NCBI GenBank assembly: GCA_009015555.1
Contig: GCA_009015555.1_3613.1
Direction: 5' to 3' (one strand)
Source of the DNA: a phage
DNA: 64,000 bases
The notes below the pieces were generated by a model, which saw only the letters and a list, made by a program, of their open reading frames with translations, ran no database searches and was not told the origin of the DNA. Made by a program: the position numbers and the translations under genes. Position 1 is the stretch's first letter; each line of letters begins with the position of its first letter. Positions 6,271 through 52,555 of the stretch are shown here, piece after piece.

Positions 6271-6290
6271 AAGGGGGCTTCGGCCCCCTT
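6271..6290 (+). promoter_or_regulatory. GC hairpin with UUCG tetraloop (AAGGGGGC-UUCG-GCCCCCUU), no U-tract
   Basis: Perfect 8-bp stem immediately after collagen gene stop; followed by RBS of next gene rather than a T-run. Confidence 0.4.
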
Positions 6291-6305
6291 CACAAGGAGA
6301 TTCAA

Positions 6306-6956
6306 ATGGCTGTAGATCCTACCAGCAAGGTTTATGCTTGGACACCGATGATTCGTTTGTCCGACATGAAATATCCTGTCTATCTTAGCGACTTCCTCAA
6401 AGAACATACTAACGTAAGTATTGGTTCTTACGTTTGGGAAAAGGACATGCGAGACCTGTGGGGTTATTGCATGGTTCATGATTCTGAAGTTCCTATTGGT
6501 GATGTGGTCACCGAAGGAAAACCGGAACTAAACGAAGAAGATGACCTGTGGTACAAGACTTGGGTTGCTCGTGATTTCTCCCCAGAAGAGATCGCAGAGA
6601 ACTTGGCCCGCGCCAAGGAAGATTATCGTACCCGTGCGTATCAGCAATATACCTCTGACCTTCAGTCGGGTGTGGCTGTTGACGGCGACGTTTTCTCTGT
6701 TGAACCACGAGAACTCCTGAACCTTGAACTGTCCAAAGCGTTTGCGTTTGCAAACTCTGAATCGGATGTTCTGATTCGCAAAGCTGATTACACAGTTTTG
6801 ACTCTACCGTCTGCGGATGCTGTTGTCAAGATTGATGAAATCCTGGCTGCAACTGCCAAGGTCCACCAGAACCTGTTGGCATACGTAAAAACTGTGTATG
6901 ACACCGAAGTCATCACAGACATCCCTGAAGTTCCTCAAACTTTCGTAGGAGAATAA
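6306..6956 (+). CDS. hypothetical protein (possible fibre assembly factor, by position)
   Basis: 216-aa ORF with RBS AAGGAGA; between two collagen-like genes. Confidence 0.55.
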   Translation: MAVDPTSKVYAWTPMIRLSDMKYPVYLSDFLKEHTNVSIGSYVWEKDMRDLWGYCMVHDSEVPIGDVVTEGKPELNEEDDLWYKTWVARDFSPEEIAENLARAKEDYRTRAYQQYTSDLQSGVAVDGDVFSVEPRELLNLELSKAFAFANSESDVLIRKADYTVLTLPSADAVVKIDEILAATAKVHQNLLAYVKTVYDTEVITDIPEVPQTFVGE

Positions 6957-6957
6957 C

Positions 6958-7269
6958 ATGGCAGCAATTGGCGGAGCATCCCTTGGTGTCCTGACTGGTT
7001 ACCAGATCATGGACCAAGCAACAGGAGAGAGCAAGACCATCTCTGAACTTTTTGCAGGTGGTGGCGGTACTCCCGGCCCGAAAGGTGACAAAGGTGATAC
7101 GGGAGACACTGGACCAGCAGGTCCAGCAGGCCCGGCGGGGGCAGCAGGTGCAGACGGTGTTGGAATCGCTGACATCGCAGCGGCTCGCTCAGGCGATACT
7201 GTAACTCTAACCTTCACCATGTCTGACTCTACAACGAAGACTGCATCTTTCGACCTTCCAGCCGCATAA
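6958..7269 (+). CDS. small collagen-like protein
   Basis: 103 aa; [34 protein letters not shown] block; RBS GGAGAA. Confidence 0.65.
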   Translation: MAAIGGASLGVLTGYQIMDQATGESKTISELFAGGGGTPGPKGDKGDTGDTGPAGPAGPAGAAGADGVGIADIAAARSGDTVTLTFTMSDSTTKTASFDLPAA

Positions 7270-7274
7270 TTAAT

Positions 7275-7296
7275 CCGCCCTTAGGGGCGGTTTTTG
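7275..7296 (+). terminator. rho-independent terminator
   Basis: CCGCCC-TTAG-GGGCGG stem followed by TTTTT. Confidence 0.55.
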
Positions 7297-7312
7297 TACA
7301 TAAGGAGACTGT

Positions 7313-8683
7313 ATGGGAACAATGAGGGGTATCACAGGGGAGCAGAACGGTGTATACTTCGGGTATGCACTTTACGATCTCGTTAACGAAAAACTTATCC
7401 CCTTTGACCAAATTGGCGAGGGGGGATCTTCTGTACCCGGCCCACAGGGTCCTCAAGGGGAGAAGGGGGATAAGGGAGACCCCGGTCCTCAAGGACCTCA
7501 AGGTGTCCAAGGAGAGCCGGGCAATCCTGGTGAACCAGGCCCTCAAGGGGAACAAGGCCCTCAGGGCGAGGCAGGGGAAATTGGTCCTCAAGGACCTCAG
7601 GGACCAGTAGGACCAACAGGCCCTCAGGGCGAGAAAGGGGAGAGGGGTGAACCAGGCCCTCAAGGTCCTGAAGGCCCTGCTGGCCCGCAAGGGGAACAGG
7701 GACCCGCCGGGGCAACAGGCCCCGTTGGACCTTCCGGTGCGACAGGTCTTGTATGGAGAGGGAACTATGATGATTCAGTCTCCTACGACGTTAACGATGC
7801 AGTTGGGTATCAGGGTGCCACATATTTCTCTACTCAGCCATCCACAGGTATCCCACCGGAATCTACTGGTACAAGGGTTAACGACCACTGGGCACTAATG
7901 GCCTCAGAAGGTGCGCCGGGACCAGTAGGTCCAGCAGGACCAACAGGCCCGCAGGGTTTGCAAGGACCAGTAGGACCCGCAGGGCCTTCCGGTGCGACAG
8001 GTCCTGCCGGACCCGCCGGACCACAAGGAGAGCAAGGCCCTCAAGGGCTACAAGGACCACAAGGTCAGCGAGGTATTCAAGGTGTTCCGGGTGAAAAAGG
8101 GGAAAAGGGAGATCAAGGACCAGTAGGTCCGGCAGGCCCTGCTGGCCCGCAAGGGGAACAGGGACCTCAGGGGGAGACTGGCCCTAAGGGAGATAAGGGT
8201 GACAATGCCCTCCCGACCATTTCTGGGATTTATGCCTCCCCGATCAACAAAACGAACTCTTGGATTCAACTCCCCGGTAACAACTTGGGGAATGTTCGTC
8301 TTATTCTCTCTGCAAACAACAATGTCTCTCAGACCCGAGTTGGTTTCTCCGCAGGAACTTCGTCAGTGGCGAAGAGGATCGGATTCTCTTATGCACTAAC
8401 AACAACTTACACGGACGTAAATCGTATTAAGACCGGGAGAACCGGCCCCACCTCGATCTCAAATACAGTAGTTTATCCGTCGGACTCTACTATCAACGTG
8501 GGGTTCGGCGACAAGGTAGTCCTTGTTGTTTTTTGCCACGACACCCTTGAAGCATGGGAAGTGACAGTGGCAGGGGTTGCCCAAAAAACTGCTGTGGGCG
8601 ACACAAGTGGGCGTTTGGCTGTACATGCAGTACAGATCTCCGGGGACAGTACGTTACTCACAGGTAATGTCTACAACCCATAA
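7313..8683 (+). CDS. collagen-like protein (two long G-X-Y regions, C-terminal globular domain)
   Basis: 456 aa; RBS AAGGAG; long [19 protein letters not shown] repeats. Confidence 0.75.
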
Positions 8684-8717
8684 TGGCTGGCTTGTGATCA
8701 TTCCCATCCCATAATTA

Positions 8718-8746
8718 AAAGCCGCCTCCGGGCGGCTTTCTTTTTA
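8718..8746 (+). terminator. rho-independent terminator
   Basis: AAAGCCGCC-TCC-GGCGGCTTT stem followed by CTTTTT. Confidence 0.55.
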
Positions 8747-8773
8747 CCTGTCAATGACTTTTTGTGACCAACA

Positions 8774-8782
8774 TGATAAAAT
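8774..8782 (+). promoter_or_regulatory. candidate extended -10 promoter (TGaTAAAAT)
   Basis: TGnTAAAAT motif downstream of a terminator and upstream of next gene; same motif recurs at 9374, 16358, 19961, 42803-42814 (minus) and 59785-59796 (minus). Confidence 0.3.
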
Positions 8783-9382: not shown

Positions 9383-9402
9383 AACTTTCATGGGGAAATA
9401 CC

Positions 9403-13872: not shown

Positions 13873-16317
13873 ATGGCAAGTGGAAACGTGATTGTCACCA
13901 AAACAGTCAACCGTACAACGTTTGAGGTGGACAAATCCTCGTATGCCCGGGCGGTCAAACAGATCCGTCAAGTTGGCAAAGAGTGGGAGAAGGCATCTGA
14001 TGCAATCTCTAAACCAAAGAAAGACCCGGCTAAAGCCTACGACAAATCAGCCCAGCAGATGCGCCTGGTGAATAAGCGCTTGGCAGAAACCCGCGCCCGT
14101 GAAGAGAAACGCGCCTCTGAACGCAGCATCGCGCTGGCCCGTCGAGAGGCGAAGGCCAAAGAAGCGATCGCCAAGGTATCCGCTGCTCGTATTAAGCAGC
14201 AGGTACAGCAGATGACCGCCCCTCGTGCCGGAATGAGCGAGATGAAGAAGTTCTACCAGCAGCAAGAGCGTGAGGCCAAGAAGGCTAACCGTAAAGCTAC
14301 GACTGGTATGAATGCAGCATCCCGTCCGATGAACGTTACCCGAATCAACTCTCTCCAACTGCCCCCTCGTGGTGGTCAGGGGACCGGAATGGTGGGTGAT
14401 CCGAATAAAGTTTACAACCCGGAATTGATCGCTGCCCAGAACCGTGCAATGGCAGGTCGAATCCGCAGTCAGTCTCAGGCCCAGGACCGCAGAACCAAGG
14501 CAGAGACACGCCGCAAGGCGGCTGAAGCGGCTCGTGCAGCCCGCATCGAAGATGTTATGGCACAACAGCGTATTCGTTTGTCATCCAAGTATGGCCGCAA
14601 CTATGCGGGCCGTCTTGGTGGAAATGCCGCTGGTCAAGGTATCCAAGATCTGAACCGTCAGTTCCGTACCGGGGCGCTGTCCGCCGGACAGTATCGCCAG
14701 AGTATTCAAGCACTGGAACGCCAGTTCCGTTCGGCACAGGCAAGTGCAGGCGGGTTTGGGGCCGTCATTGGAGACATCCGCTCCCAACTGTTGGGCGCAG
14801 GTGCAGCATACGGTGTATTTGCCGCAGGCGCAAGTGTTCTTCAACAAGGCCAGTTCTTCCAGGGTATGGATGCAACGATGACGATGGTTTCTGATTCATC
14901 CGAAGAAGCTGCAAAAAGAATCCAGTTCTTGAAGGATCAGGCTTATCGACTCGGATTGGATCTTAAAATCGCTTCTCAGGGCTACGTGCAGATGTCCGTC
15001 AACTCCGACGGTATCCTGAATAAGGCTCAGAACGATGAATTGTTCAAAGGCTTCTCTGAGTACGCAACGGCCCTTCAGGTTGACCCGGTTAAGTTCCAGC
15101 GTGGTATCACCGCGATCGGGCAGATGATGGGTAAAGGCCAGATCATGGCTGAAGAATTGAAAGGCCAGTTGGCTGAAGGTATCCCGGGTTCATTGCAGGT
15201 ATTCGTGAAGGCGTCTCAGGAAGCGTTCAACGACACCACCATCGACGTTGAAAAACTCATGGATATGATGCAGAAGGGTGAACTGAAAGCTGCCAAAGTT
15301 CTGCCATTCGTAGCCAAATACTTCGCCGAAGCTGCCCGTAACGGCGGCGCGTTGGATAAGGCATTGCAGAGCAACCGTGTGGCGATGCAACAGATGCAGC
15401 AGACGTGGGTTAACTTCCAGAACGCCATCTTCCAGGGTGGTTTCGGCGAGCAAATGACCCGTGTGTTCCGTGATCTCGCAACAATCCTTGATAGTAACGG
15501 TGAACTGGCAACCAACCTCGGGGCCTTCTTCGGCAATGTGATCGAGGGGTTCTGGGACATGGTTACAGAGATCCACGATGACTTCGTTCTGTTGGACCGT
15601 ATCGTCAGCTACTATGCTGAGAAACTCGGTTACCAAGGTGAACTCCTCAAGGATGTTTTCAACTGGGCAGGGTATGCAGTCGGCATGGCGATCTTCGTCG
15701 GCAGTCTCTACAAAATCTTCGGTATCCTTAGCAAAATCGCTGGACTGCGTGGTGCTCTTAAAGAGATCCGTGGTACAATGGGTGGCGATATGGGCGGAGG
15801 CCGTGGAGGAAGAGGTGGTAGAGGCGGACGTGGGGGCGGAGGCCGTGGAAATGGTTGGGGTGCTCCTCGCGGGGGTGGTGGATTCAAGCTGCCTGTTGTT
15901 CCTGGGCCGTGGCCTATGGTGGCAGGTATCCTTGGATGGAACTGGCTGAACGATGAGGAAGTTAACGCCAAAGCTCAGGCTGTAAATGAGTTCATGGCAC
16001 CTGCCCGTGCAACCCAGTCCCCTATCGAGCAAGCACTCACGGGGGACATGGGTCTCTTCATGAAGACAGCGTTCTACTCTTTGTTTGGTTCCAAGAAGGA
16101 AGCTCCAAGCACAACCATCGATCCTGAACGTTTGGTTACCGCTGGCGCTTCTGGGCCATATCCGGGGCCGTTCCCAATCAATCAGCCTCCTCAAAAGGTT
16201 GAGGGCAACGTGACCATCGAGATCAAGGCTGGCGAATTGAAGAACATGATTCGTGCCGTTGTTGATGAGAACAACCAGTTCAACTTCAACATGCTCATCC
16301 AGGGTGGGCCTAACTAA
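13873..16317 (+). CDS. tail tape measure protein
   Basis: 814 aa; Ala/Gln/Arg-rich coiled-coil composition; internal GGRGGRGGRGGRGGGG tract; RBS GGAGGAGG; position after frameshifted chaperone. Confidence 0.75.
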   Translation: MASGNVIVTKTVNRTTFEVDKSSYARAVKQIRQVGKEWEKASDAISKPKKDPAKAYDKSAQQMRLVNKRLAETRAREEKRASERSIALARREAKAKEAIAKVSAARIKQQVQQMTAPRAGMSEMKKFYQQQEREAKKANRKATTGMNAASRPMNVTRINSLQLPPRGGQGTGMVGDPNKVYNPELIAAQNRAMAGRIRSQSQAQDRRTKAETRRKAAEAARAARIEDVMAQQRIRLSSKYGRNYAGRLGGNAAGQGIQDLNRQFRTGALSAGQYRQSIQALERQFRSAQASAGGFGAVIGDIRSQLLGAGAAYGVFAAGASVLQQGQFFQGMDATMTMVSDSSEEAAKRIQFLKDQAYRLGLDLKIASQGYVQMSVNSDGILNKAQNDELFKGFSEYATALQVDPVKFQRGITAIGQMMGKGQIMAEELKGQLAEGIPGSLQVFVKASQEAFNDTTIDVEKLMDMMQKGELKAAKVLPFVAKYFAEAARNGGALDKALQSNRVAMQQMQQTWVNFQNAIFQGGFGEQMTRVFRDLATILDSNGELATNLGAFFGNVIEGFWDMVTEIHDDFVLLDRIVSYYAEKLGYQGELLKDVFNWAGYAVGMAIFVGSLYKIFGILSKIAGLRGALKEIRGTMGGDMGGGRGGRGGRGGRGGGGRGNGWGAPRGGGGFKLPVVPGPWPMVAGILGWNWLNDEEVNAKAQAVNEFMAPARATQSPIEQALTGDMGLFMKTAFYSLFGSKKEAPSTTIDPERLVTAGASGPYPGPFPINQPPQKVEGNVTIEIKAGELKNMIRAVVDENNQFNFNMLIQGGPN
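15779..15900 (+). repeat. Gly/Arg-rich low-complexity tract inside tape measure gene
   Basis: Encodes GGDMGGGRGGRGGRGGRGGGGRGNGWGAPRGGGGF. Confidence 0.6.
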
Positions 16318-16318
16318 T

Positions 16319-16347
16319 CAAGGGGGCTTCGGCCCCCTTTTTTATTG
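16319..16347 (+). terminator. rho-independent terminator after tape measure gene
   Basis: AAGGGGGC-TTCG-GCCCCCTT stem followed by TTTTATT. Confidence 0.55.
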
Positions 16348-16357
16348 CCTGCATTCA

Positions 16358-16366
16358 TGCTAAAAT
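16358..16366 (+). promoter_or_regulatory. candidate extended -10 promoter (TGcTAAAAT)
   Basis: TGnTAAAAT motif between terminator and next RBS. Confidence 0.3.
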
Positions 16367-16386
16367 ACTAGCACAGGAGGACTTTT

Positions 16387-17250
16387 ATGGCAAGTTACGA
16401 AAACGGTGTTTACGTTCCGTCAACGGAACAAGAGAAGAAAATGAAGGAGGCCGTTGACGACTGGCGGGCTGGAGTCGATCGGAAGGAAAAGGCGGTTTCT
16501 AACGCCAAGGCACGTGAAGACATTCAGTACACCATGTTCGTTTCCGGACTGCGCCGTGGACGGTTGAACGAGTTCGAGAGCAAAAACCAGACAGATGACC
16601 TGGCAATCCTCTTCGACTCAGTTACCAACCATAGTTACACAAAGGACTACAACAAGTCAAGCTATGCGGTGGAGTCAAAGGCAAAAGCCTCTGACCACGT
16701 AACAACGCAGGATGGCAAGTTTACGTTCTCTGGCACAGTTACCGACTCCCCTTACTTGATTGACCCTCGGAACATGATTGATCGGGACACAGATAAGGAA
16801 AACCCGATGCTTGCCCGCCGCCCGGCGAAGGCCATCGAGATTCTCGAACTGATTGCCGACTCACACCAGCTTGTAACTCTCGTCACCGAGGACAATATCC
16901 TCAGTAATTATGTTATCACCAACTTCCAAGTGGATCGTAGTTCAGAGACAGGATCTTCAATCAACGTGCAGGTTACGTTGGAAGAGTTCCGCTTCAAGAT
17001 GGTTAACAAGACCGTAATGGCTCGTACTTCTGACCCCAAGAAGGCTAAAAACGCCAACACCGGGACGAAGCAAACGGCTGAAGGTGGCGCGGTGGATGAC
17101 AGTGCGAAGCAGAAGCGTCAAACACCGTATATCGGGAAGAATGCTGAAACAAAAGAGCGCTGGGAAAACGCAGCTATCGGTACTACTGATTTCGGCGGGA
17201 AGCCGGGGGCGAAGCTACCGTTTGACCCATCTGACCTGATGAGGAAGTAA
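16387..17250 (+). CDS. tail or baseplate protein (post-tape-measure)
   Basis: 287-aa ORF with RBS AGGAGG; gene order. Confidence 0.5.
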   Translation: MASYENGVYVPSTEQEKKMKEAVDDWRAGVDRKEKAVSNAKAREDIQYTMFVSGLRRGRLNEFESKNQTDDLAILFDSVTNHSYTKDYNKSSYAVESKAKASDHVTTQDGKFTFSGTVTDSPYLIDPRNMIDRDTDKENPMLARRPAKAIEILELIADSHQLVTLVTEDNILSNYVITNFQVDRSSETGSSINVQVTLEEFRFKMVNKTVMARTSDPKKAKNANTGTKQTAEGGAVDDSAKQKRQTPYIGKNAETKERWENAAIGTTDFGGKPGAKLPFDPSDLMRK

Positions 17251-23813: not shown

Positions 23814-24329
23814 ATGCGTATGAATAACTTCAAACACTACAACCCGAAGGCGAAAGCCTTCGGGGACGGTGTTCAATATTTTTCTGATGACAAGGGCCGT
23901 GATTTTTACGAGAGTCTCGGCCTGTTTACCAAGAAATATGCGGTCCTTTTCGATGAGTTCGGAATGGTCCGCTTCTTGGTCAAGTCTGTGGATATTTCTA
24001 TGACTTATCCATTGGGCCTGTCTATTTCTGACCTGAACAGCATCCCAAAGGACTTCGACATCATGAAGGGGCCTTGGATGTTCGATGGGAAGAAAATTAC
24101 CAAGGTGGACTTCGACTTGGCTATCGGAACTGCCAAGCGTAAGAAAGCCATCATGGGGTCTCTGTCCAGCCAGATCACACCATTGGCTGATGCAGTGGGA
24201 CTGGGTGAAGCAACAGAAGAGGAGATTGAGAAATATAATGCTCTTCTGAAACTTCGTGTTAAGCTAAATCGGATCTCTGATGACACTCCCGCGAGTGAAA
24301 TTGATTGGTCTGAGTTCACCGCTGCATAA
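23814..24329 (+). CDS. tail fibre assembly protein
   Basis: 171 aa; C-terminal ITPLADAVGLGEATEEE...LLKLRVKLNRISDDTPASEIDW matches conserved tail-fibre-assembly C-terminal region. Confidence 0.55.
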   Translation: MRMNNFKHYNPKAKAFGDGVQYFSDDKGRDFYESLGLFTKKYAVLFDEFGMVRFLVKSVDISMTYPLGLSISDLNSIPKDFDIMKGPWMFDGKKITKVDFDLAIGTAKRKKAIMGSLSSQITPLADAVGLGEATEEEIEKYNALLKLRVKLNRISDDTPASEIDWSEFTAA

Positions 24330-24337: not shown

Positions 24338-24357
24338 GCCGGGTATTTGCCCGGCCC
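24338..24357 (+). promoter_or_regulatory. intergenic hairpin (GGCCGGG-TATTTG-CCCGGCC)
   Basis: Inverted repeat between fibre-assembly gene and membrane-protein gene; no T-tract. Confidence 0.3.
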
Positions 24358-28691: not shown

Positions 28692-28716
28692 AGCCGCCTT
28701 CGGGCGGCTTTTATTT
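28692..28716 (+). terminator. rho-independent terminator
   Basis: AGCCGCC-TTCG-GGCGGCT stem followed by TTTATTTT. Confidence 0.5.
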
Positions 28717-28726: not shown

Positions 28727-29923
28727 ATGTTTCCTTTTGCTATTATTCCACCGTTTGTTCTTTCAGGCAAGGAAAAAATCAAGCAGTTTTCGGTTACGTC
28801 TTACGACAGTATGGTCCTGACTGATAAGGGGAACCTGTATGTTACAGGATTCAACCGGGTGGGTGAGCTTGGTGTTGGGGACACAACTAACCGAAATAAC
28901 CAATGGGTTTTGGTAATGCAGGACGTAAACTGGATTGCAAGCAACCGTGAGAAGCTGTGGGCAATTAAGAACGACGGTTCCATTTACACCCCGGATCTTC
29001 GGTCATCCAGTACAACTGCATATACTTGGCAAATCGACACGGTAGCACCTGGAAGTATTGGGGATTTGTCTGGGGATAATATCAAGGAGATTTACAGCGA
29101 CACAGAGAGCGTATATATCCTCAAAAAGGATGGTTCACTGTGGTATCTGGGAAATAACTCTAAAGGCCAAGCTGGAAACGGGGGAACTTCCTTAACCACA
29201 CGCTTTGTGAAGGTTTCAGATGGTGTGGTATCTTGGTCATCCAGTGGACCCACTGTTGTTTTCGTGAAAACAGACGGATACTTCTGGGGCTGCGGATCAA
29301 ATTCCCGAAATATCATTTCCTCTGCTGGCAGCAGTATCACAACCCCTACCCGGATGTTTAGCACCACCCACGCTGACGGAGGTGTTGTAACAGATTACAC
29401 GCTGGCCTCTGACCAAGCGTTTTTGATCAGATATAGTAATGGTAAATATCGTACCAAAGGTCTCAATATCGGACAACTTCCTTCAGGGGATGCAAGTCCA
29501 TACAATACCCTTACGGACGTTCCTGACGGATACACCCCCGGTGATGGAACGGAGCCTCTGGTAAGCAAAACAGGAGGGGTGTCGGCCTCTGGAACTTGGC
29601 CTAACTATAGTGGTCTTTTCTTCTACCATACGGGAGGGAAATTCATAGTCACTGGTCAAGCAAGCGGGAGAATTTCCGGGACCAGCCAAACCAGCGGTAC
29701 ACTCTCAAACTGGACCAATGTCGATGCGGCAAGTGACGAGATCCCATCTATCAAGGGAATGACCTTCGGACTGGGTTGGGTTGCTGCCTACAACGATACG
29801 CAGATTCTGTACTGGGGGTATACGGGAAACTCCTCTGCATATCCGGTTGTGGGATACCTAATGCCCGGACCTTCAAGGCTTGAATATGTGGCACGTTTTG
29901 CAACCCCGCCGATCGAGGCATAA
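28727..29923 (+). CDS. RCC1-like beta-propeller repeat protein (fibre-associated by position)
   Basis: 398 aa; repeated G.N..G.LG.G-type blades (GFNRVGELGVGD, GNNSKGQAGNG, WGCGSNS); RBS GGAGG. Confidence 0.5.
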   Translation: MFPFAIIPPFVLSGKEKIKQFSVTSYDSMVLTDKGNLYVTGFNRVGELGVGDTTNRNNQWVLVMQDVNWIASNREKLWAIKNDGSIYTPDLRSSSTTAYTWQIDTVAPGSIGDLSGDNIKEIYSDTESVYILKKDGSLWYLGNNSKGQAGNGGTSLTTRFVKVSDGVVSWSSSGPTVVFVKTDGYFWGCGSNSRNIISSAGSSITTPTRMFSTTHADGGVVTDYTLASDQAFLIRYSNGKYRTKGLNIGQLPSGDASPYNTLTDVPDGYTPGDGTEPLVSKTGGVSASGTWPNYSGLFFYHTGGKFIVTGQASGRISGTSQTSGTLSNWTNVDAASDEIPSIKGMTFGLGWVAAYNDTQILYWGYTGNSSAYPVVGYLMPGPSRLEYVARFATPPIEA

Positions 29924-29925: not shown

Positions 29926-29954
29926 AAAAGGCACCCTAACGGGTGCCTTTCTTT
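29926..29954. terminator. bidirectional rho-independent terminator at the convergence of plus and minus gene blocks
   Basis: AAGGCACCC-TAAC-GGGTGCCTT stem flanked by A-run upstream and T-run downstream. Confidence 0.6.
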
Positions 29955-33228: not shown

Positions 33229-33377
33229 ATCCACCCCCAGTATTTCGAAAGTTCTGTGGAGATCATGATCCCCACGACATAAGTCATTGAGAAAACCACG
33301 GTCCAATACATGAACCGGGTCCCAGCCATCGCTACCATAATGAACAATATAACAAAAGTTTCAGGCGCGATCAACAT
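33225..33377 (-). CDS. small membrane protein (50 aa, 2 TM), not in ORF track
   Basis: ATG 1 nt after upstream stop; hydrophobic MLIAPETFVILFIMVAMAG...; stop overlaps lipoprotein start. Confidence 0.35.
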   Translation of the reverse strand: MLIAPETFVILFIMVAMAGTRFMYWTVVFSMTYVVGIMISTELSKYWGWM

Positions 33378-33790
33378 TTTGTTGCTCCCTTGCGACGTTT
33401 ATCTTCATCTTCAATAGCCTCGTCTTCTGCCCGGGCCAAGATCTGATAGATTGTCTCTGGATTGTCGAGGAACTCTGTATACTTCTTGATCCTCACTGCC
33501 AACTTGCCACGGATCTTACGCTCCTGCATCTGCTGGTTCTGCATGAAACCACGCTGGTACAGGATGAAATAGTATACCTGCTTTGCTCGATTACGATCGC
33601 AACCCAGTGCATGGGCGAAGTCATTGAAGCAGTCGCTGTCGTGTTTGACCATGAAAATGTCCCAGAACACCTCACGCGCTTTTGCAAGCTCCTCGGGAGT
33701 CACTTTTGGGAACTCCGGGTCGCCATAGCGTGGATGCTTTTTGCCAGCCCACTCGGGTTTTGCCGGATAAACTTTTCTTGTATTGCTCAT
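33371..33790 (-). CDS. hypothetical protein
   Basis: Track ORF 33371..33805 starts at TTG; ATG at 33790 has GAGGAG upstream. Confidence 0.5.
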   Translation of the reverse strand: MSNTRKVYPAKPEWAGKKHPRYGDPEFPKVTPEELAKAREVFWDIFMVKHDSDCFNDFAHALGCDRNRAKQVYYFILYQRGFMQNQQMQERKIRGKLAVRIKKYTEFLDNPETIYQILARAEDEAIEDEDKRRKGATKC

Positions 33791-33828
33791 TTCATCACTC
33801 CTCAAGGTAAAACGTTATTCCACAGGAT

Positions 33829-33844
33829 GGGGGCCGAAGCCCCC
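33829..33844 (-). promoter_or_regulatory. GC hairpin with UUCG loop (GGGGGCUUCGGCCCCC), no U-tract
   Basis: Perfect stem in intergenic region after gene 33857..34549. Confidence 0.4.
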
Positions 33845-33856: not shown

Positions 33857-34549
33857 TTAATCACAGGACGAGGAACTTGAACCGCTGTCATACGAACTGG
33901 AGTCGTAAGAACTGCTGGAAGAAGAACCATAGCTCGAACTGCTGTAGCTGTCGTCAGAAGACGAGTAGCTTGAACTGTACGTTGAGGTCGCAGAGGAACT
34001 GCGGCACTCTTCCACCGGGGCAGGCTGCGCCGCCGGGGTGTCGTCACTCAGGATCGCTCCGGCTGCATAGCCGTACATCGCCGCGTTTACGGGATCAATA
34101 CCGTGAGAAACGACATGACCACCTGTGCTGTGCGGGGTATCGTCAAGACGTCGGCTTGGGGCCGGAGAACCGGACATCTTAGCCTGCTTGATGAACTGAC
34201 GCTTCGCCTTCGGCGGTAGAGTCTTACCCTTCGCATACGCTGGCAGTTCCACACCTTTAAGCTGCTCGTTCAGAGGCTTTGGTGGGGTCTTTTCCACCGG
34301 GGCCTCACGAACAGTCTGGCGAGTTTCTACTGTCACCACGCGCTTGGTGTTTTCTGCTACATTTGCACTTACCAAGACTTGGTTCTTTTCCAGAGGCTCG
34401 TCCAGCGGACGGGTTTCAGCCTTGGTAAAGCGTACCTGACTTACGGTCTGGGCCTGAGATTGTTTGGCGATATACTCGTCAACCTTTGCGTCTTCGATCT
34501 TCGCCGGGGCGAACAGGGCTTTGATCCACGCCACAAATTTCTTGATCAT
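33857..34549 (-). CDS. hypothetical protein with Ser/Tyr-rich low-complexity C-terminal tail
   Basis: 230 aa; RBS AGGAGA; C-terminus SSSATSTYSSSYSSSDDSYSSSSYGSSSSSSYDSSSYDSGSSSSSCD. Confidence 0.55.
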   Translation of the reverse strand: MIKKFVAWIKALFAPAKIEDAKVDEYIAKQSQAQTVSQVRFTKAETRPLDEPLEKNQVLVSANVAENTKRVVTVETRQTVREAPVEKTPPKPLNEQLKGVELPAYAKGKTLPPKAKRQFIKQAKMSGSPAPSRRLDDTPHSTGGHVVSHGIDPVNAAMYGYAAGAILSDDTPAAQPAPVEECRSSSATSTYSSSYSSSDDSYSSSSYGSSSSSSYDSSSYDSGSSSSSCD

Positions 34550-38400: not shown

Positions 38401-38427
38401 AATAAAAAGGCCACCCGAAGGTGGCCT
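38401..38427 (-). terminator. rho-independent terminator
   Basis: GGCCACC-TTCG-GGTGGCC stem followed by TTTTTATT on minus strand. Confidence 0.55.
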
Positions 38428-38432
38428 TAATC

Positions 38433-38863: not shown

Positions 38864-38892
38864 ATTATGGGGCCTTTCGGCCCCGCTGTCAA
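38864..38892 (-). promoter_or_regulatory. sigma70-like promoter (TTGACA, 17-nt spacer containing GC hairpin, CATAAT)
   Basis: -35 abuts stop of upstream gene; spacer is GCGGGGCCGAAAGGCCC. Confidence 0.5.
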
Positions 38893-40935: not shown

Positions 40936-41220
40936 TTACTTAACTGTTACGAAGTTTACACCAGCTTGCTCAAGGATGTCAATACGCAATTGACGTTCTT
41001 TTCCACGGTAAATGTTTTTCAGGGCTTGACGCTGCTTTTCGAGGCTCTCGTACTCTCCTTCTGGGAAGATACGGATTACCGAATCAGCAGAGTAAATTCC
41101 AACACCCACGGCGTTGATCCCGCCCGTTTTTGTTAGCTTACCCTTTGTCACCAGGTAATAAGGATACAGGTCATACCCCACAATCGCCGTGACTGTCGGC
41201 AGCAGATCATCAGGATTCAT
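40936..41220 (-). CDS. hypothetical protein
   Basis: Track ORF 40936..41244 trimmed to ATG 41220. Confidence 0.45.
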   Translation of the reverse strand: MNPDDLLPTVTAIVGYDLYPYYLVTKGKLTKTGGINAVGVGIYSADSVIRIFPEGEYESLEKQRQALKNIYRGKERQLRIDILEQAGVNFVTVK

Positions 41221-42104: not shown

Positions 42105-42131
42105 TAATAAAAAACCGCCCCGAAGGGCGGT
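42105..42131 (-). terminator. rho-independent terminator
   Basis: ACCGCCC-TTCG-GGGCGGT stem followed by TTTTTATTA on minus strand. Confidence 0.55.
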
Positions 42132-42757
42132 TATCTTTTCTTGGTTTCAATCTTGATTGAGCGCATCAAGCACCGGGAATGATACAGAGCTTGGTCTTGA
42201 GAACCGCCGATCATGAGATTAAAACTTGTCCCGTCTGCAAGATCTGGGATGGCTTTGTTGTTTATCGTTGGCGATCCATCAACAGTTACAGTGAGGCTCT
42301 TGTTAATAGACTCGAAGATTATCTCGTGATAAACACCTTTTGTCACGGCGGGGCCTGCATTGACCCTGCTGGAATTATACCACCAGTCAAGGTATCCGTT
42401 ACTCAGCATGTTGGCGATCCAAGTGCCAGACCCGTTTCCTTGAATAGATCTCCCCACAAATATCATTGGGTTTGTTGCCGCTGCCTTAACCTTCAGATTC
42501 ATGGTGATCTTCCAGTCATTGTTTAGCAGCTTGTCTGGGGTGGTCCCTCCGCTCAATGCCCCATCTCCAACAAAATCCATCGCTGGCAGGCCCTCGTCGA
42601 GAACCGTCGCGGATGTTCCGGCGGTCCTGTTGAACGTTATCCCGCGATCAGTGAATCCTGAGAATGTGCCCAAGGGATACTTGGTGAAGTCCAACTCGAA
42701 CCAAGTGCTGTACTTTTTCGGATCTCCGCCCCCCGGCAGTACCAACATCTCTTGCAT
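42131..42757 (-). CDS. N-tag family paralog B: ConA/LamG-like jelly-roll protein (N-terminus MQEMLVLPGGG)
   Basis: 208-aa ORF with RBS GGGGG; LamG-like pattern; shared N-terminal motif. Confidence 0.55.
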   Translation of the reverse strand: MQEMLVLPGGGDPKKYSTWFELDFTKYPLGTFSGFTDRGITFNRTAGTSATVLDEGLPAMDFVGDGALSGGTTPDKLLNNDWKITMNLKVKAAATNPMIFVGRSIQGNGSGTWIANMLSNGYLDWWYNSSRVNAGPAVTKGVYHEIIFESINKSLTVTVDGSPTINNKAIPDLADGTSFNLMIGGSQDQALYHSRCLMRSIKIETKKR

Positions 42758-42766
42758 ATTGCCCCC

Positions 42767-42791
42767 TAAAAGAAAAGGGGCCGAAGCCCCC
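42767..42791 (-). terminator. hairpin plus U-tract (GGGGGCUUCGGCCCC then UUUUCUUUU) between polymerase gene and paralog B
   Basis: Perfect stem with UUCG loop followed by T-run on minus strand; lies 5 nt downstream of predicted start site of the motif at 42803-42814. Confidence 0.45.
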
Positions 42792-42802: not shown

Positions 42803-42814
42803 ATTTTACCACAA
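42803..42814 (-). promoter_or_regulatory. TTGTGGTAAAAT motif (candidate extended -10 promoter)
   Basis: Exact 12-mer also at 9371-9382 (plus) and 59785-59796 (minus). Confidence 0.3.
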
Positions 42815-42831: not shown

Positions 42832-45468
42832 TTAGTGACAATCTCCCCAGCTTGTGCCCGTCAGGTATTCACCTGTGATGTGGACTGGAGATTTCATCAT
42901 CTTAGCCGCCTGCTCCACGCACTTAACGACCATCTGCCCGACCGGGCAATGAATAATCGTGTACACGCCGTTCTCGTCCGGATCACACTTGAACTTACCT
43001 TCTTTCACACAGTGACCATCCAGAACCAGACCTTTCGCCAGGCACTGCTCAACAAAGGCTTTTGCGGTTGCCTCGTCGTTGAACTTCCATTCTTTCTTGA
43101 ACTTGTGCGGCACTTCAAGCTGGTATTCATCGTGGTAGTAGATGATACGGCGGACGCCTTCATCATACCAGCCACGCTTAACCAACTGCCAGTGCAGCAG
43201 GATACCGACCAGATCGAACAGTGCAGCACCGCCGTTCTGCTGGTATGCGTTCAGCAAGGAGTGTTTGGAGCGGGTGTAGATCTTACGACCATCGAGGCCG
43301 TAGATAAAGCGTTTCCCGGTCAACTCCCAGAACTTCTCAAGTGCTTCTTTACGACCTTTCAGACCGATGTTGCTATCCCAGAATGCGTCGATTACCGCCT
43401 GAGCCTTGTCGAGGGAAATACCCAACATGGAGGCGATCTTCGCGGCCTGGGCACCGTACATGATGCCGTATGTCACACCCTTACCTTCACCACGGGAAAC
43501 CTTCTTACCCGCCGCTTTGGTATACGCTTCAGCGTTTCGGCTGTGGGCGTCACCTGATTCCATGATCCGGAGATATGCCCCGCCGTCGAACTCGTAGGCA
43601 CCCCATGCTGCGATCATACCTTCGAGGTTTGAGCCGTCGATACCAACCTGATATTTCCCTTCAGATGCCCGGAATAAGCCACGCATCTCTTTACCCAGTA
43701 AAACCTTCTCGTCTGGTTTAGGGACGTTAGCCACGATTGTGTGCTTACGTCGCCCGGTGTTGGTGATCCCAGAATAACGCGCCGGGAGTTTACCGTCAAT
43801 ACGCAGTCGTGGGTGGTTCAGCCATCCTGTGTCAACCTTGTCTTCCTTGAGCGGGTCAAGTACAGAACGACGGTTACGCAGAGACAGCCACTTCACGATC
43901 TGCTTTGCCATATGACCGTCAACCTTCTCCAAGTTCGGACACAGGCCGCTCATATCTTTCAACTGCGGAGACGTAGGCAGGCCACGGGCCTTACGTCGCA
44001 ACAGCTTGTACATCTTCTCTTTGTCCTGCCACGCCTTCGGGGTGATGCCGAGGTATTCCAGAATAAGATCCCGGTATTCAACTTGGTCCAACTGCTCAAT
44101 GTACTCACGGACAAGCCCATCGACCTCGTTATCGGGGCGTTGTTTCTTAAACTGGTCCTTCGTCACATCCTTACTGCGCCACAGGGTTGGCTTCCAGCCT
44201 GCATCACGGATAAGGAACTTCTTCACGTCATCTTGGTTACCGATACGCATCGGAATCATAATGTCCGGCATGGTTTGGTTCTTCAGATCCAACATTGCCC
44301 GTGCCATGTCCTCTGGTGAGAGAGGGATCAGGGTCGTTTGCTTGTTGTTCTGGTCCCGGATAAACTGCGGCATCGCTGCCTCATCCTCGACACCATGCTC
44401 ATTGCAATACTTGATTGCTGCCGCCGTCAGGCTACCATCGGCCTTGAAAGACTTCGCCGGGGGACCCTTAAAGTCGAGTGCCTCCCAGTTGACATTATAC
44501 CCCAACTTCTCCAGCCACTTCCACCCAGTCCCGGACAAAGATCCATCGCCCTTGAACGGCTTAGAAGGGAAGGTCGGTTGTGCTGACTTCGCCATCTCTT
44601 TCTTCGGGAGATGGGGTTCAACATCTCCCTCGATCTCTCGCATCATTTGATCGATACGGTCACGAAGTTTAAGTGCCGCCTCTTCGTCGAAAGATACGCC
44701 CTGAATCTCCTGCTCAATCATCAGGTAGTCTGTCAGCATACCACGACGCATGGCATTCTTCCAGTTGATCAGCTTGTACTTCTTGGCGTCCTTATCCTTA
44801 TCTTCATCCTTGTACATGAAGCGTTTGTCATCTACCAGCTTGCCGTCGCAGGCGATCTCCTCCATGAGGGCCGTCCACACCATTTCGTTGATGATAACGT
44901 CTTCGATGATACGATCACAATACTTCCACAGCGGCAGGCCACGCCAGTCTTCGATTGCCACTTTCTGGTTGGCAACACGCATACCCCACGCCTCTAAGCC
45001 GTGAGGGCCGACAGGTTTCATCTTCCCGGTGACCGGGTTCTTTACCATCTCCGGACACCCACGAGGAAGCGGTCGGTCTGGATAAAGAGTTCGAGACATT
45101 GACAGAGTGTCGAACAGGTTAACCTGCTTGCCGTTCAGGGTGCCCATGCACTTAGGGTCGCCGAACATATCATACTGTGTTCCCAACATCTTTTTAAACA
45201 GACGAAGGTCGTAGCCGAACAGGTTGTGGATCGCGATGGATTTAGGCTCCGTCTTGAACCAATCGTTCAACTCCTCAAAGGTACGAATTTTGAAATTCTT
45301 GCCCTTCGATTGGATAAATTTCAACGCCTGATCGTACCCTTCCCGGTTGGGGTCGAGGAAGATATTCCAGTTATCGACCTTATACTCCTTGAACAGGATC
45401 ACGTGAAGCTGGTCTACTTCTTCGAGCAGACCATTGGCTTCAGCATCCCCTACAAACAACCCTTTCAT
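42832..45468 (-). CDS. DNA polymerase, family A, with 3'-5' exonuclease domain
   Basis: Track ORF 42832..45495 starts at GTG; ATG at 45468 has AAGGAG; N-terminal exonuclease motif VGDAEANGL; C-terminal KxxxYG..YG region and HDE motif typical of family A polymerases. Confidence 0.85.
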   Translation of the reverse strand: MKGLFVGDAEANGLLEEVDQLHVILFKEYKVDNWNIFLDPNREGYDQALKFIQSKGKNFKIRTFEELNDWFKTEPKSIAIHNLFGYDLRLFKKMLGTQYDMFGDPKCMGTLNGKQVNLFDTLSMSRTLYPDRPLPRGCPEMVKNPVTGKMKPVGPHGLEAWGMRVANQKVAIEDWRGLPLWKYCDRIIEDVIINEMVWTALMEEIACDGKLVDDKRFMYKDEDKDKDAKKYKLINWKNAMRRGMLTDYLMIEQEIQGVSFDEEAALKLRDRIDQMMREIEGDVEPHLPKKEMAKSAQPTFPSKPFKGDGSLSGTGWKWLEKLGYNVNWEALDFKGPPAKSFKADGSLTAAAIKYCNEHGVEDEAAMPQFIRDQNNKQTTLIPLSPEDMARAMLDLKNQTMPDIMIPMRIGNQDDVKKFLIRDAGWKPTLWRSKDVTKDQFKKQRPDNEVDGLVREYIEQLDQVEYRDLILEYLGITPKAWQDKEKMYKLLRRKARGLPTSPQLKDMSGLCPNLEKVDGHMAKQIVKWLSLRNRRSVLDPLKEDKVDTGWLNHPRLRIDGKLPARYSGITNTGRRKHTIVANVPKPDEKVLLGKEMRGLFRASEGKYQVGIDGSNLEGMIAAWGAYEFDGGAYLRIMESGDAHSRNAEAYTKAAGKKVSRGEGKGVTYGIMYGAQAAKIASMLGISLDKAQAVIDAFWDSNIGLKGRKEALEKFWELTGKRFIYGLDGRKIYTRSKHSLLNAYQQNGGAALFDLVGILLHWQLVKRGWYDEGVRRIIYYHDEYQLEVPHKFKKEWKFNDEATAKAFVEQCLAKGLVLDGHCVKEGKFKCDPDENGVYTIIHCPVGQMVVKCVEQAAKMMKSPVHITGEYLTGTSWGDCH

Positions 45469-50466: not shown

Positions 50467-50804
50467 CGTTTAGCTCCTTTCACAGACACAACAACCAAGA
50501 ACTGGAATACCGCCAAGACGCCCATCAAGAATAACCCTGCGATAGTGGCAAAAAATATGAACGGTAAACCGTATACCGATGCCAAAACGCAACCACCGAT
50601 AAACCCAGCCACAATCACCTCAATGCCCTCCAAGATGAACATGGCTTCACATTTCTTGTACTGATCTCGTAAGATAAAGAACAGCGCCACTGCCGAGAAG
50701 GCTATGAGGTAAATAATTAGGGTTGTCGGTGAAGTGATGGGTTTCAGGATTTCCCACCACCAATCCTGTGCCGCCGTCATCAGCCCAATAATCCTGTCAA
50801 TCAT
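50463..50804 (-). CDS. membrane protein (3-4 TM)
   Basis: 113-aa hydrophobic ORF with RBS GAGG. Confidence 0.5.
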   Translation of the reverse strand: MIDRIIGLMTAAQDWWWEILKPITSPTTLIIYLIAFSAVALFFILRDQYKKCEAMFILEGIEVIVAGFIGGCVLASVYGLPFIFFATIAGLFLMGVLAVFQFLVVVSVKGAKR

Positions 50805-51073
50805 GATCCATACCTCGCTTCATAAAGGAAAGTGTCCAAATCTGTTTTGTTGTCCCAGCCCGGCTCGGAGACAGGCATCAGCCAATCTACGTTGAGGATC
50901 AGCATATCCCCTTTGCGGTCGAAGGACTCCCACCAACCGAACTCGTCGGCCTTGCTCAGGAAGACCATCTTCCCGTGGAACTCTTTTGGCCCGGCGTAGA
51001 CCAAGGCATACCCGCCGGAGAACAACGTCCCCTCGTGCAGGTTGCAAGGGTCTTTGCGTGAATCGTCAATCAT
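50801..51073 (-). CDS. hypothetical protein
   Basis: 90-aa ORF; ATGA overlap with upstream gene. Confidence 0.5.
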   Translation of the reverse strand: MIDDSRKDPCNLHEGTLFSGGYALVYAGPKEFHGKMVFLSKADEFGWWESFDRKGDMLILNVDWLMPVSEPGWDNKTDLDTFLYEARYGS

Positions 51074-51234
51074 TTACGTGGTTTCCTCTTTGAGGGTTGT
51101 GGTTCACAGACCCGCGCCCGGTAGCAACTGTACTCAACGTAGCGCCAGGTTTTCTTTAAGTGCTCGATCAGTTCTTTGAGATGTTCCTCGGTCCGGGCAT
51201 AGCCGCACACATGATAACAGTCCCCGACTGACAT
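51070..51234 (-). CDS. small Cys-rich protein
   Basis: C-terminal 54 codons of track ORF 51070..51351 from ATG 51234; CYHVCG...CYRARVC pattern. Confidence 0.35.
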   Translation of the reverse strand: MSVGDCYHVCGYARTEEHLKELIEHLKKTWRYVEYSCYRARVCEPQPSKRKPRK

Positions 51235-51275
51235 CCGGCACTTCACACTGTAGTGTGTTTCGAAGTTCTTGTCAA

Positions 51276-51416
51276 TCACTTCAACAACTCCCCTATCGCC
51301 AGCCCGGCGATCAGAAGCTCCAGCATACCAACCATCATTGCAATCACCCAAATCACCTCATCCACAGGTCGGCGACCAAAACAGTGTGCCAGCAGCGTCA
51401 TGAAAAATGTGATCAT
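51276..51416 (-). CDS. small membrane protein (46 aa), not in ORF track
   Basis: MITFFMTLLAHCF...VIWVIAMMVGMLELLIAGLAIG; ATGA overlap with upstream gene. Confidence 0.3.
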   Translation of the reverse strand: MITFFMTLLAHCFGRRPVDEVIWVIAMMVGMLELLIAGLAIGELLK

Positions 51417-51709
51417 AATCCAAGTTCCTCCGCAGAATAAATGTCGTTGCCCTCATAACCACGGAACAGTACCATCACTGGGTCACAGCGGCCCTTGGTA
51501 GACATGAAACGCGACTTCTCGGCATTCACCAAGTAAACATCTTTGTTCACCGGAAATGTCTTTGGCTGACCCATACCGGGCGTTGCCACCGTGATACGGC
51601 TGTGCTTAGGGATCTTCTTGACGACTTCGACCTGCTTGCCGACCAGCGACTCGATCCCTTCACGTTCTGCGACCATATCCCGCACTACCGGGACCAGTAA
51701 CTTAATCAT
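51413..51709 (-). CDS. hypothetical protein
   Basis: Track ORF 51413..51754 trimmed to ATG 51709 (RBS GGAGG). Confidence 0.45.
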   Translation of the reverse strand: MIKLLVPVVRDMVAEREGIESLVGKQVEVVKKIPKHSRITVATPGMGQPKTFPVNKDVYLVNAEKSRFMSTKGRCDPVMVLFRGYEGNDIYSAEELGL

Positions 51710-51917
51710 CCACAACCTCCACTTCATCTTCAAACAGGCAAACCGACAATCCATCGGTGTTCTTCACCACATAGTACACCGGGGTTCCATCGTAGCCACC
51801 ATAGGGTACACCTTGAACTTCCAGAATATCCCCGACCTTAGTCCGAGTGAACAGGGCCGGGTGCGACCAGCAACGGTTCATGCTGGCTACCTTGACCTTG
51901 ACTTTAGTCACAATCAT
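51702..51917 (-). CDS. hypothetical protein
   Basis: 71-aa ORF with RBS GTAGGAGG. Confidence 0.5.
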   Translation of the reverse strand: MIVTKVKVKVASMNRCWSHPALFTRTKVGDILEVQGVPYGGYDGTPVYYVVKNTDGLSVCLFEDEVEVVDD

Positions 51918-51943
51918 ATAACCTCCTACTGGTTGATAAGGGG

Positions 51944-51972
51944 AGTTTACAGGGGTTTTATCGGGGAGTCAA
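51944..51972 (-). promoter_or_regulatory. sigma70-like promoter (TTGACT, 17-nt spacer, TAAACT)
   Basis: Hexamers on minus strand directly downstream of terminator. Confidence 0.4.
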
Positions 51973-51974
51973 AC

Positions 51975-51998
51975 GAAAAAAGGCCCCCGAAGGGACCT
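51975..51998 (-). terminator. rho-independent terminator
   Basis: GGUCCC-UUCG-GGGGCC stem (one G-U pair) followed by UUUUUU on minus strand. Confidence 0.5.
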
Positions 51999-52003
51999 TT
52001 TTA

Positions 52004-52522
52004 TTATTCTGCCGCTGCTTCAGGCATTGCCTCAGCAACTTCCGGCTCCGGAGTGAATACACGGAAAGAGGTTTCTGTCTCGATAGAGAAACGGTCATTG
52101 TGCCGACGCAGAAATGCGTATACCGAACGGGCCTGCGTGTTTGCGTACATGATCATATCTGCCGGGTGGAACTCCAAACAGGAGTGGCCTGACGCCTGCA
52201 CACGCTGAATAACATTATTCGCCTGCACGGTGATCACTTGGGCGATAAAGTTACGCAGTTCGGTAGATGCCGTTCCAGTACGAACAAACTCCGACAGGTG
52301 CGGATAAAGATATTGCGGCACATTCCGATCCAGCGGATAGAACTGAGAGTCGTTCGGCACAGACGTCGAGAAGGTCACCTTCACAGAGTTACCAAGATTC
52401 TGCAAGATCGCATTCTCAAAAGCGGTTGTCACAATATCGGTGATGTCCACAACCGCACCATTTTTCATCGGCGGGATGTCAAAATCGTTACGTTCGCCAC
52501 CACGTTGACGTTCAATAATCAT
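52004..52522 (-). CDS. hypothetical protein
   Basis: Track ORF 52004..52528 (GTG) trimmed to ATG 52522 with GAGGTG. Confidence 0.5.
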   Translation of the reverse strand: MIIERQRGGERNDFDIPPMKNGAVVDITDIVTTAFENAILQNLGNSVKVTFSTSVPNDSQFYPLDRNVPQYLYPHLSEFVRTGTASTELRNFIAQVITVQANNVIQRVQASGHSCLEFHPADMIMYANTQARSVYAFLRRHNDRFSIETETSFRVFTPEPEVAEAMPEAAAE

Positions 52523-52540
52523 AATCACCTCGAAGTAAAT

Positions 52541-52555
52541 GGGGCCGAAGCCCCG
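52541..52555 (-). promoter_or_regulatory. GC hairpin with UUCG loop (GGGGCUUCGGCCCC), no U-tract
   Basis: Perfect stem immediately after primase-helicase stop. Confidence 0.4.

Follow-up and report, generated by a model that had tools for sequence, protein, structure and literature searches.

The stretch of phage DNA analysed here, hereafter the window (64,000 nucleotides; NCBI GenBank assembly GCA_009015555.1, contig GCA_009015555.1_3613.1), has a GC content of ~51% and is, by sequence comparison, ~97.5% identical to Cronobacter phage CR3, an rV5-like myovirus of ~149 kb belonging to the genus Certrevirus within the Vequintavirinae. Its genes run on the plus strand up to ~29.9 kb, where they form the head, tail, and fibre module, and on the minus strand from ~30 kb to the window end, where DNA polymerase, primase/helicase, helicase, and lysis genes are found together with many small open reading frames (ORFs). 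Between these genes lie nine short hairpins, each a GC stem topped by C(UUCG)G, a tetraloop of unusual stability, and we propose that they would serve as transcript punctuation in a phage that depends on the host RNA polymerase: those followed by a U-tract very probably act as intrinsic terminators, when those without one may rather protect the 3′ end of the upstream message.

The initial annotation of this stretch had listed near-identical GGGGC-UUCG-GCCCC stems at five sites, and these prove to be real hairpins placed correctly within 1 nt (the one given as 16319-16338 spans 16320-16339). Their common 14-mer, GGGGCTTCGGCCCC, is found exactly at 6274-6287 and 16323-16336 on the plus strand and at 33830-33843, 42777-42790, and 52541-52554 on the minus strand, that is five times versus 0.00 expected from 100 dinucleotide-preserving shuffles of the window, and no additional site resembling it was seen in the window at up to two mismatches. 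The full stems of these five copies cover 6271-6290, 16320-16339, 33829-33844, 42776-42791, and 52541-52554 (called here S1, S2, S4, S8, and S9, respectively). A scan for GC-rich tetraloop hairpins added four further C(UUCG)G hairpins built on other GC stems, at 28692-28709(+), 38428-38407(-), 42132-42113(-), and 52002-51977(-) (S3, S5, S7, and the 52002 hairpin), which brings the total in the window to nine on at least five different stems: GGGG(G)C, GCCGCC, GCCACC, CCGCCC, and GGUCCC. All nine UUCG hairpins of the window have the C-G closing pair and a complementary stem, and 27 do so across the four Certrevirus genomes that we compared, namely the window, CR9, POP18, and phiTE, of which phiTE and CR9 were partial. 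Their stems comprise 5-9 GC-rich pairs, or up to 11 when A-U extensions are counted, all with a tetraloop, and their folding energies computed by ViennaRNA range from -9.6 to -16.4 kcal/mol. All nine are intergenic, 2-15 nt past a stop codon and on the sense strand, and each of them forms in both the minimum free energy (MFE) and the centroid folds in native context. An Rfam search of the whole window returned 0 matches at or above the gathering threshold.

The orientation of the loop is a signal at the RNA level. In 9 out of 9 hairpins, UUCG is read on the mRNA strand, and the five copies initially listed all carry it on the strand of the local genes (plus up to ~29.9 kb, minus beyond), in agreement with the earlier claim that they are oriented with gene direction. 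In the four genomes, with genes defined by a greedy gene map, the GC tetraloop hairpins that follow genes display CUUCGG in the sense direction 27 times and CCGAAG 0 times, the next commonest loop being the UNCG relative CUCCGG (n = 4). The GGGGC/GCCCC stem reads alike on both strands and the loop alone tells them apart, so an orientation bias of this kind can matter only there. Beyond Certrevirus (POP18 has four exact copies of GGGGCTTCGGCCCC in 150 kb), the 14-mer was retrieved in at least 120 stretches of unrelated IMG/VR viral contigs from many environments. Among the matches listed, 98 of 113 usable instances have an ORF end at most 40 nt upstream in the UUCG sense, versus 2 of 113 in the antisense direction only, and in 60 of these 113 there is no strong T-tract and the next ORF, led by a Shine-Dalgarno (SD) sequence, lies at most 35 nt away. 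The frequency of the 14-mer after stop codons in unrelated viral contigs indicates a generic phage device and no peculiarity of this genome.

The notion of a near-identical repeat family did not hold: no similarity extends beyond the hairpin, at least five stems share the loop, and unrelated viral contigs often contain the 14-mer. Descent from one dispersed repeat, as in repetitive extragenic palindromes (REPs) or miniature inverted-repeat transposable elements (MITEs), was likewise considered and rejected, since around the five copies nothing is common to the flanks but a stop codon and an AT-rich context; the identity between S1 and S2 is exactly the 20-nt stem-loop and none beyond. Other late genes are trailed by related hairpins with CUCG, UUAG, UCCG, UAAC, or 3-nt loops (2192-2217, 7275, 8718, 19916, and a bidirectional one at 29927).

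What follows the stem distinguishes two groups, as the initial annotation had discerned when it separated members with a U-tract from those with none. The U-tract was scored by a T-score of the d'Aubenton-Carafa type (d'Aubenton-Carafa et al. 1990) for the tail, combined into a d-score. A good U-tract is found in six hairpins (S2, S3, S5, S7, S8, and 52002-51977), and the first five of these have T-scores of 4.4-4.7 and d-scores of 35-43, which are terminator-like values; S2 and S8, two of the sites initially listed, reach 42.6 and 35.2. We consider it highly probable, from tail and stem composition, that the U-tract members are intrinsic (Rho-independent) terminators of the host RNA polymerase. 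At such sites, the hairpin would form in the RNA exit channel when a weak rU:dA hybrid occupies the active site, and the transcript would be released.

Four of these six hairpins (S2, S5, S7, and 52002) are next followed by a promoter and would thus end one transcription unit and start the next. S2 (16320-16339, +; AAGGGGGC-UUCG-GCCCCCUU then UUUUAUU) comes after the tape-measure gene and has the features of a canonical intrinsic terminator; 18 nt past it, a late-promoter-like extended -10 motif, TGCTAAAAT (16358-16366, +), would restart transcription for gene 16387-17250. The corresponding pattern, TGNTAAAAT, is enriched (10 matches vs. 1.46 expected) and agrees with the motif TggTAaAAtA reported upstream of late genes in rV5 (PMC3606486). 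S5, S7, and 52002 are each followed by a TTGAC-N16-17-TAnAAT promoter. In S5 (38407-38428, -; AAGGCCACC-UUCG-GGUGGCCUU then UUUAUUU; d-score 35.3), the predicted terminator precedes TTGACT-17-CATAAT at 38388-38360(-); in S7 (42113-42132, -; AACCGCCC-UUCG-GGGCGGUU then UUUUAUU; d-score 38.6), it overlaps the stop of gene 42131-42757 and precedes TTGACG-16-TAATAT at 42090-42063(-); and the 52002 hairpin (51977-52002, -; AAAAAGGUCCC-UUCG-GGGGCCUUUUU, with one G.U pair), also a putative terminator, precedes TTGACT-17-TAAACT at 51972-51944(-). These TTGAC promoters agree with the published conserved early promoter of Certrevirus, which is sigma-70-like: AAAA(N3-4)TGTTGAC(N17-19)TATAAT.

By contrast with sites that have a partner promoter, the SD of the next gene lies only a few nucleotides past S1, S3, S8, and S9, and there is no room for a promoter, so that the distal genes at these sites must be expressed by read-through. 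For S3 and S8, which have a U-tract but abut the ribosome-binding site (RBS) of the next gene, this means that they must be leaky terminators, or attenuators, and partial termination would lower the expression of the distal gene. S3 (28692-28709, +; AGCCGCC-UUCG-GGCGGCU then UUUAUUUU; d-score 41.3) follows the gene of a 1074-aa tail fibre and is immediately succeeded by the SD GGAGG of gene 28727-29923, as expected of an operon-internal, leaky terminator. S8 (42776-42791, -; GGGGGC-UUCG-GCCCCU then UUUCUUUU) follows the DNA polymerase gene, and gene 42131-42757, with its SD AGGGGG and its ATG, comes immediately next, which makes it another predicted operon-internal terminator. This downstream gene matches the PHROG family “major tail protein” (2.5e-39) and would thus be a tail-like gene inside the replication arm.

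The surroundings of S8 have further particularities. A late-promoter-like motif, TGGTAAAAT (42803-42811, -), lies 11 nt upstream of S8, the promoter thus preceding the hairpin, and both POP18 and CR9 retain it in the form TGnTAAAAT. Instead of closing the hairpin, the 3′ arm of S8, GCCCCU, could pair with the unusual G-run SD AGGGGC of the next gene across the U-tract (42758-42786, -), and a G-run SD of the next gene is present at this site in POP18 too; such a pairing, as judged from complementarity, could couple the state of the hairpin to translation. A long-range stem seen in the MFE fold, formed by the region upstream of S8 and the start of the next gene (its SD and AUG), was dropped, as it did not appear by eye to be conserved in POP18.

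The U-tract is poor or absent in S1, S4, and S9, all three of which are conserved and use a GGGGC-type stem. S1 (6271-6290, +; AAGGGGGC-UUCG-GCCCCCUU) lies 6 nt past the stop of the gene of a 1108-aa virion protein, in an operon-internal position, and its tail, CACAAGGAG, runs directly into the SD of gene 6306-6956 (dG -15.4 kcal/mol; T-score 1.5; d-score -15.1). S4 (33829-33844, -; GGGGGC-UUCG-GCCCCC) has no U-tract, its tail being AUCCUGUGG, and stands between genes 33857-34549 and 33371-33805 (dG -12.9 kcal/mol; T-score 2.2; d-score 0.6). S9 (52541-52554, -; GGGGC-UUCG-GCCCC) is found 5 nt past the stop of the primase/helicase gene, with a weak tail, AUUUACUU, before the SD GAGGUG of gene 52004-52528 (dG -9.6 kcal/mol; T-score 2.9; d-score 2.8). 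As their distal genes depend on read-through, S1 and S9 can be only weak terminators at most.

Stable hairpins that lack a U-tract and stand after a cistron, such as REPs, trp t, or the 3′ ends of Rho-terminated transcripts, block polynucleotide phosphorylase (PNPase) and RNase II and thereby raise the amount of the upstream mRNA. By analogy with these elements, and with a precedent in phages, a stability role is plausible for S1, S4, and S9, which may block 3′-to-5′ exonucleases and thus provide a stable 3′ end to the upstream cistron after processing of read-through transcripts, and may additionally cap the 5′ side of the downstream segment. Whether their specific role is mainly that of a 3′-exonuclease barrier, perhaps along with that of a pause site or weak terminator, is to our mind an even bet on present sequence features.

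Some neighbouring observations touch on U-poor elements. Past S4, a 38-nt leader (33791-33828, -; AUCCUGUGGAAUAACGUUUUACCUUGAGGAGUGAUGAA) is almost invariant in CR3, phiTE, POP18, and CR9, when the flanking genes are 76-87% identical; no clear promoter consensus was seen within it. Two GC hairpins with non-UUCG loops and no U-tract also occupy intergenic gaps of the late arm: one at 2933-2949(+), GGCCCC-CGUGC-GGGGCC followed by AUCCUCC (compare AUCCUG in the tail of S4), and one at 24339-24354(+), CCGGGU-AUUU-GCCCGG. Finally, the coding region of ORF 23814-24329, a tail fibre assembly protein homologue, contains at 23843-23864(+) a GAAA-loop palindrome with nine perfect base pairs, CCCGAAGGC-GAAA-GCCTTCGGG.

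Conservation at orthologous sites speaks for the reading of these hairpins as transcript punctuation. Orthologues were drawn from INPHARED records, and anchoring on neighbouring proteins in IMG/VR gave 6 and 1 loci. CR3, CR9, phiTE, POP18, and relatives known from metagenomes have the hairpins in the corresponding intergenic gaps, and this conservation holds down to a flank identity of ~66-70% in other genera. S1 is kept at the same spot in CR3, phiTE, CR9, POP18, IMGVR_146410, SSBI34, W70, PVP-SE1, and 4MG (three genera), with a UUCG loop in PVP-SE1 and 4MG, a UUAG loop in W70 and SSBI34, and one compensated stem change in IMGVR_146410 (GAGGGC/GCCCUC). Its tail varies from UUUUU to CACAA across these relatives and, as the hairpin is kept while the tail is variable, it is the helix, and not the U-tract, that is under conservation at this site. 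The S2 site retains its core 14-mer, followed by the T-tract and TGnTAAAAT, in the rV5-like phage W70, in SSBI34, in Serratia phage ChuuTotoro, and in ABPH49, with flanks ~68-70% identical, the late-promoter-like motif downstream of S2 being kept in all relatives. We also observed that the S2 hairpin, T-tract, and promoter (16315-16370, +) match 56 nt at 85.7% in the ~10-kb records of Vibrio phages vB_Vipa71 and vB_Vipa4291, which is probably a convergent terminator sequence.

The other sites show a comparable picture. S3 has a UCCG loop in CR9 and a different stem in phiTE (AAGGCCC-UUCG-GGGCCUU); S4, along with its leader, is nearly invariant in CR3, phiTE, POP18, and CR9; S5 is kept in CR3 and CR9; the S7 site carries a UCCG loop in CR3 and POP18; S8 is kept in CR3, POP18, and CR9; and S9 is kept in CR3, CR9, and KaOmega, being absent, together with its downstream gene, from W70 and SSBI34. 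An orthologous cassette of the 52002 hairpin comes directly after the primase gene in SSBI34. The use of one loop on differing stems, together with the stem swap of S3 in phiTE, points to selection for a capped helix, and it is mainly from this between-site comparison and from this stem swap that structural support comes.

Several points weigh against reading these hairpins as terminators and stabilisers selected for their helix. Covariation at S1 is weak, four core pairs being invariant and two pairs having one double change each in a formal pair count, and the S2 14-mer is invariant across genera, so that the data fit conservation of the sequence equally as well as conservation of the helix. 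Fold z-scores against dinucleotide shuffles are uninformative, as hairpins made of a G-run and a C-run survive shuffling. S8 stands downstream of a conserved late-promoter-like motif, an odd order for a plain terminator. Lastly, no transcript data for Vequintavirinae were found in the searched literature, termination, read-through, and stabilisation being all inferred.

One element must be set apart from this series. The initial annotation had taken a GAAA-loop hairpin at 38869-38884(-) for a variant of the UUCG hairpins; its coordinates are correct, but its kinship is not, since this GGGGCC-GAAA-GGCCCC palindrome (S6; 38884-38869, -) fills the 17-nt spacer of a promoter, TTGACA-17-CATAAT (38864-38892, -), and recurs in that setting with variable loops. 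Indeed, the arrangement TTGACA-nn-GGGGCC-loop-GGCCCC-ATAAT is found three times in the early region of phiTE, four times in POP18 (one starting with TTGACC), and once in CR9, and one additional instance in phiTE and two in POP18 have a fully compensated alternative stem, GCCGGGA/TCCCGGC. The loops are GAAA, GATA, ACCT, GGAA, GGAAA, GGACA, and GGGTT. The promoters with a palindrome in the spacer lie at 41130-41158, 42168-42196, 44993-45021, and 45691-45720 of L005, at 2102-2130, 5591-5620, 6135-6163, 6368-6397, 6874-6902, and 11674-11702 of L015, and at 225-254 of L017. No description of such promoters was found for Certrevirus in the searched literature. By its promoter context, S6 is of a different class from the UUCG hairpins and resembles the promoter-early stem-loop (PeSL) cassettes of T4-type phages, in which a polyG/polyC stem-loop stands mostly between the -35 and -10 boxes (Arbiol et al. 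2010, PMC2839356), in which recombination was mapped within the stem-loop, and for which mini-circles were shown experimentally (PMC2839356; Comeau et al. 2014, PMC4122927). A PeSL-type architecture is found at S5, S7, 52002, and S6, when S1, S2, S3, S4, S8, and S9 have no attached sigma-70 -35/-10 pair.

This resemblance leads to the alternative that the hairpins, alone or as hairpin-plus-promoter units, are recombination linkers, that is, short sites for homologous or microhomology-mediated exchange of cassettes between related phages, as was proposed for the PeSLs of T4-type phages, and that they control transcription only as one of their functions. When the window is compared with CR9, 8 of the 48 homology breakpoints do lie at most 25 nt from a hairpin versus 1.16 expected under a uniform null, and breakpoints with phiTE do so in 4 of 37, but only 2 of 28 are at hairpins for POP18, and a uniform null is too generous, as cassette boundaries must be intergenic and most of the larger gaps carry a hairpin. 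Some genes are neatly bracketed: gene 7313-8683 (456 aa), found only in the window and CR3, is flanked by the hairpins 7275 and 8718 (7275-8739); the S8-S7 block (42113-42791), which contains gene 42131-42757, gives way to other DNA in CR9, the breakpoints being 42775 and 42132; and gene 52004-52528, between S9 and the 52002 hairpin (51977-52554), is missing from W70 and SSBI34, the window/CR9 breakpoints at these bracketed genes being 7294, 8710, 42132, 42775, and 51968. An identical core of 14-20 nt at five sites, together with the mapping of recombination in the polyG/polyC stem-loops of PeSLs (PMC2839356), could be seen as what such exchanges would use. However, an identity of 14-20 nt is very short for homologous recombination, the copies have no flank similarity, and a DNA linker would not need the strict loop orientation (27:0 in the four genomes, 98 vs. 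2 in IMG/VR). We thus judge a linker role unlikely.

A wider proposition, in which GGGGC-UUCG-GCCCC is conserved as a sequence, doubles in Vequintavirinae as a PeSL-like exchange linker or is the target of a dedicated factor that binds RNA, and, in its U-less copies abutting an RBS, constitutes a general device that sets expression ratios within operons, likewise strikes us as improbable. If it were true, these U-less, RBS-abutting copies, which are the majority pattern in unrelated phages (60/113 among the matches listed), would represent an under-appreciated general device.

Taken more narrowly, GGGGC-UUCG-GCCCC might be a sequence-specific recognition site, on which a particular protein of the phage or of its host, for instance an endoribonuclease or a regulator that binds RNA, would act by cleavage or binding. 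The invariance of the S2 14-mer in four genera with flanks ~68-70% identical, that of four S1 core pairs, the sharing of this stem by 5 of the 9 UUCG hairpins, and its presence in all the U-poor members are in line with such a site. However, any single mutation weakens an all-GC stem of 5 bp, so that selection for stability alone would be expected to keep it invariant; the 14-mer is frequent in unrelated viral contigs in the same after-stop context, which suggests a generic physical optimum; and variants exist at orthologous positions, namely UUAG at S1 in W70 and SSBI34, GAGGGC/GCCCUC in IMGVR_146410, and stems lengthened or shortened by G/C indels. This explanation is therefore very unlikely in our opinion.

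Finally, RNase III or other double-strand-specific processing of the polycistronic mRNA between genes, as in T7, which the initial annotation had envisaged through cleavage assays and which the intercistronic position of the hairpins and the missing U-tract of some would accommodate, can be dismissed almost entirely because the helices are too short: RNase III substrates need ~20 bp (about two helical turns), the T7 R sites being much longer and having internal loops, when the stems here have 5-8 GC-rich pairs (11 at most with A-U extensions) and no consistent larger enclosing helix was predicted.

Returning to punctuation of transcripts by terminators and, where the U-tract is lacking, by probable stabilisers, its value for this phage group is primarily one of annotation, and a modest one, as CR3-type records are devoid of regulatory features. 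The present analysis adds to the map one palindrome embedded in a promoter, three U-poor hairpins that are conserved, and six probable terminators, together with the promoters that accompany them, and thereby gives an outline of how the structural and replication arms are divided into transcription units. S1, S4, and S9 escape terminator predictors in which a U-tract is mandatory, though their conservation equals that of canonical sites. As about half of the 113 unrelated viral instances, among the matches listed, are U-poor and directly before the next gene, this operon-internal usage is a common phage device, which involves no new principle. The interpretation given in the initial annotation was thus largely right, apart from three corrections: the class is broader than the five sites, S6 was misassigned, and RNase III is not a fitting enzyme.

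With regard to known systems, these hairpins are ordinary and not new, their kind having earlier been reported and annotated for the subfamily to which this phage belongs. The terminators predicted in rV5, CB7, phiTE, and P7_Pc (PMC3606486; PMC7344957) are like S2, S3, S5, S7, S8, and 52002 in having a GC stem, a tetraloop, and a U-tract; they differ from S1, S4, and S9, which have no adequate U-tract, and from S3 and S8, which have no space for a downstream promoter. The likeness extends to an identical hairpin, GGGGCTTCGGCCCC-ATTTT, which is listed in Table S4 of the rV5 study as the Rho-independent terminator t109 (-14.2 kcal/mol) along with several further UUCG or UCCG hairpins (PMC3606486). 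Likewise, the GenBank records of phiTE (JQ015307) and P7_Pc (ON712643), the two that were checked, label the S2 orthologue a terminator, and neither has a terminator feature at the S1 orthologue.

The resemblance to PeSL cassettes lies in an intergenic GC stem-loop accompanied by a sigma-70-like promoter, the stem-loop standing either before the promoter (S5, S7, and 52002) or in its spacer (S6), and in an association, in both systems, with boundaries of indels or replacements. The differences are that PeSLs belong to an unrelated phage group, so that sequence homology is not expected, that recombination is experimental there when the window is known from sequence alone, and that a UUCG loop is unreported there, the words “UUCG” and “tetraloop” being absent from PMC2839356. 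As for the REP and trp t stabilisers, they share with S1, S4, and S9 a stable, U-less hairpin just past a cistron, but REPs are longer, imperfect palindromes that form a repeat family with conserved flanks, whereas the hairpins of the window have only a helix of 14-20 nt in common. For the C(UUCG)G hairpins of T4, Tuerk and colleagues reportedly proposed roles in both termination and mRNA stability. These CUUCGG hairpins were reported from intercistronic regions of T4 in 1988, according to a later summary (PMC8948821). To the extent that this summary describes them, the T4 hairpins are similar to those of the window in their loop and closing pair, short stem, intergenic position within the large genome of a lytic phage of coliphage type, sense orientation, and mixture of terminator-linked and U-less members, and they differ from them in that the window is from the Vequintavirinae, at ~51% GC, with all-GC and largely GGGGC stems whose roles are here read from the genome sequence only.

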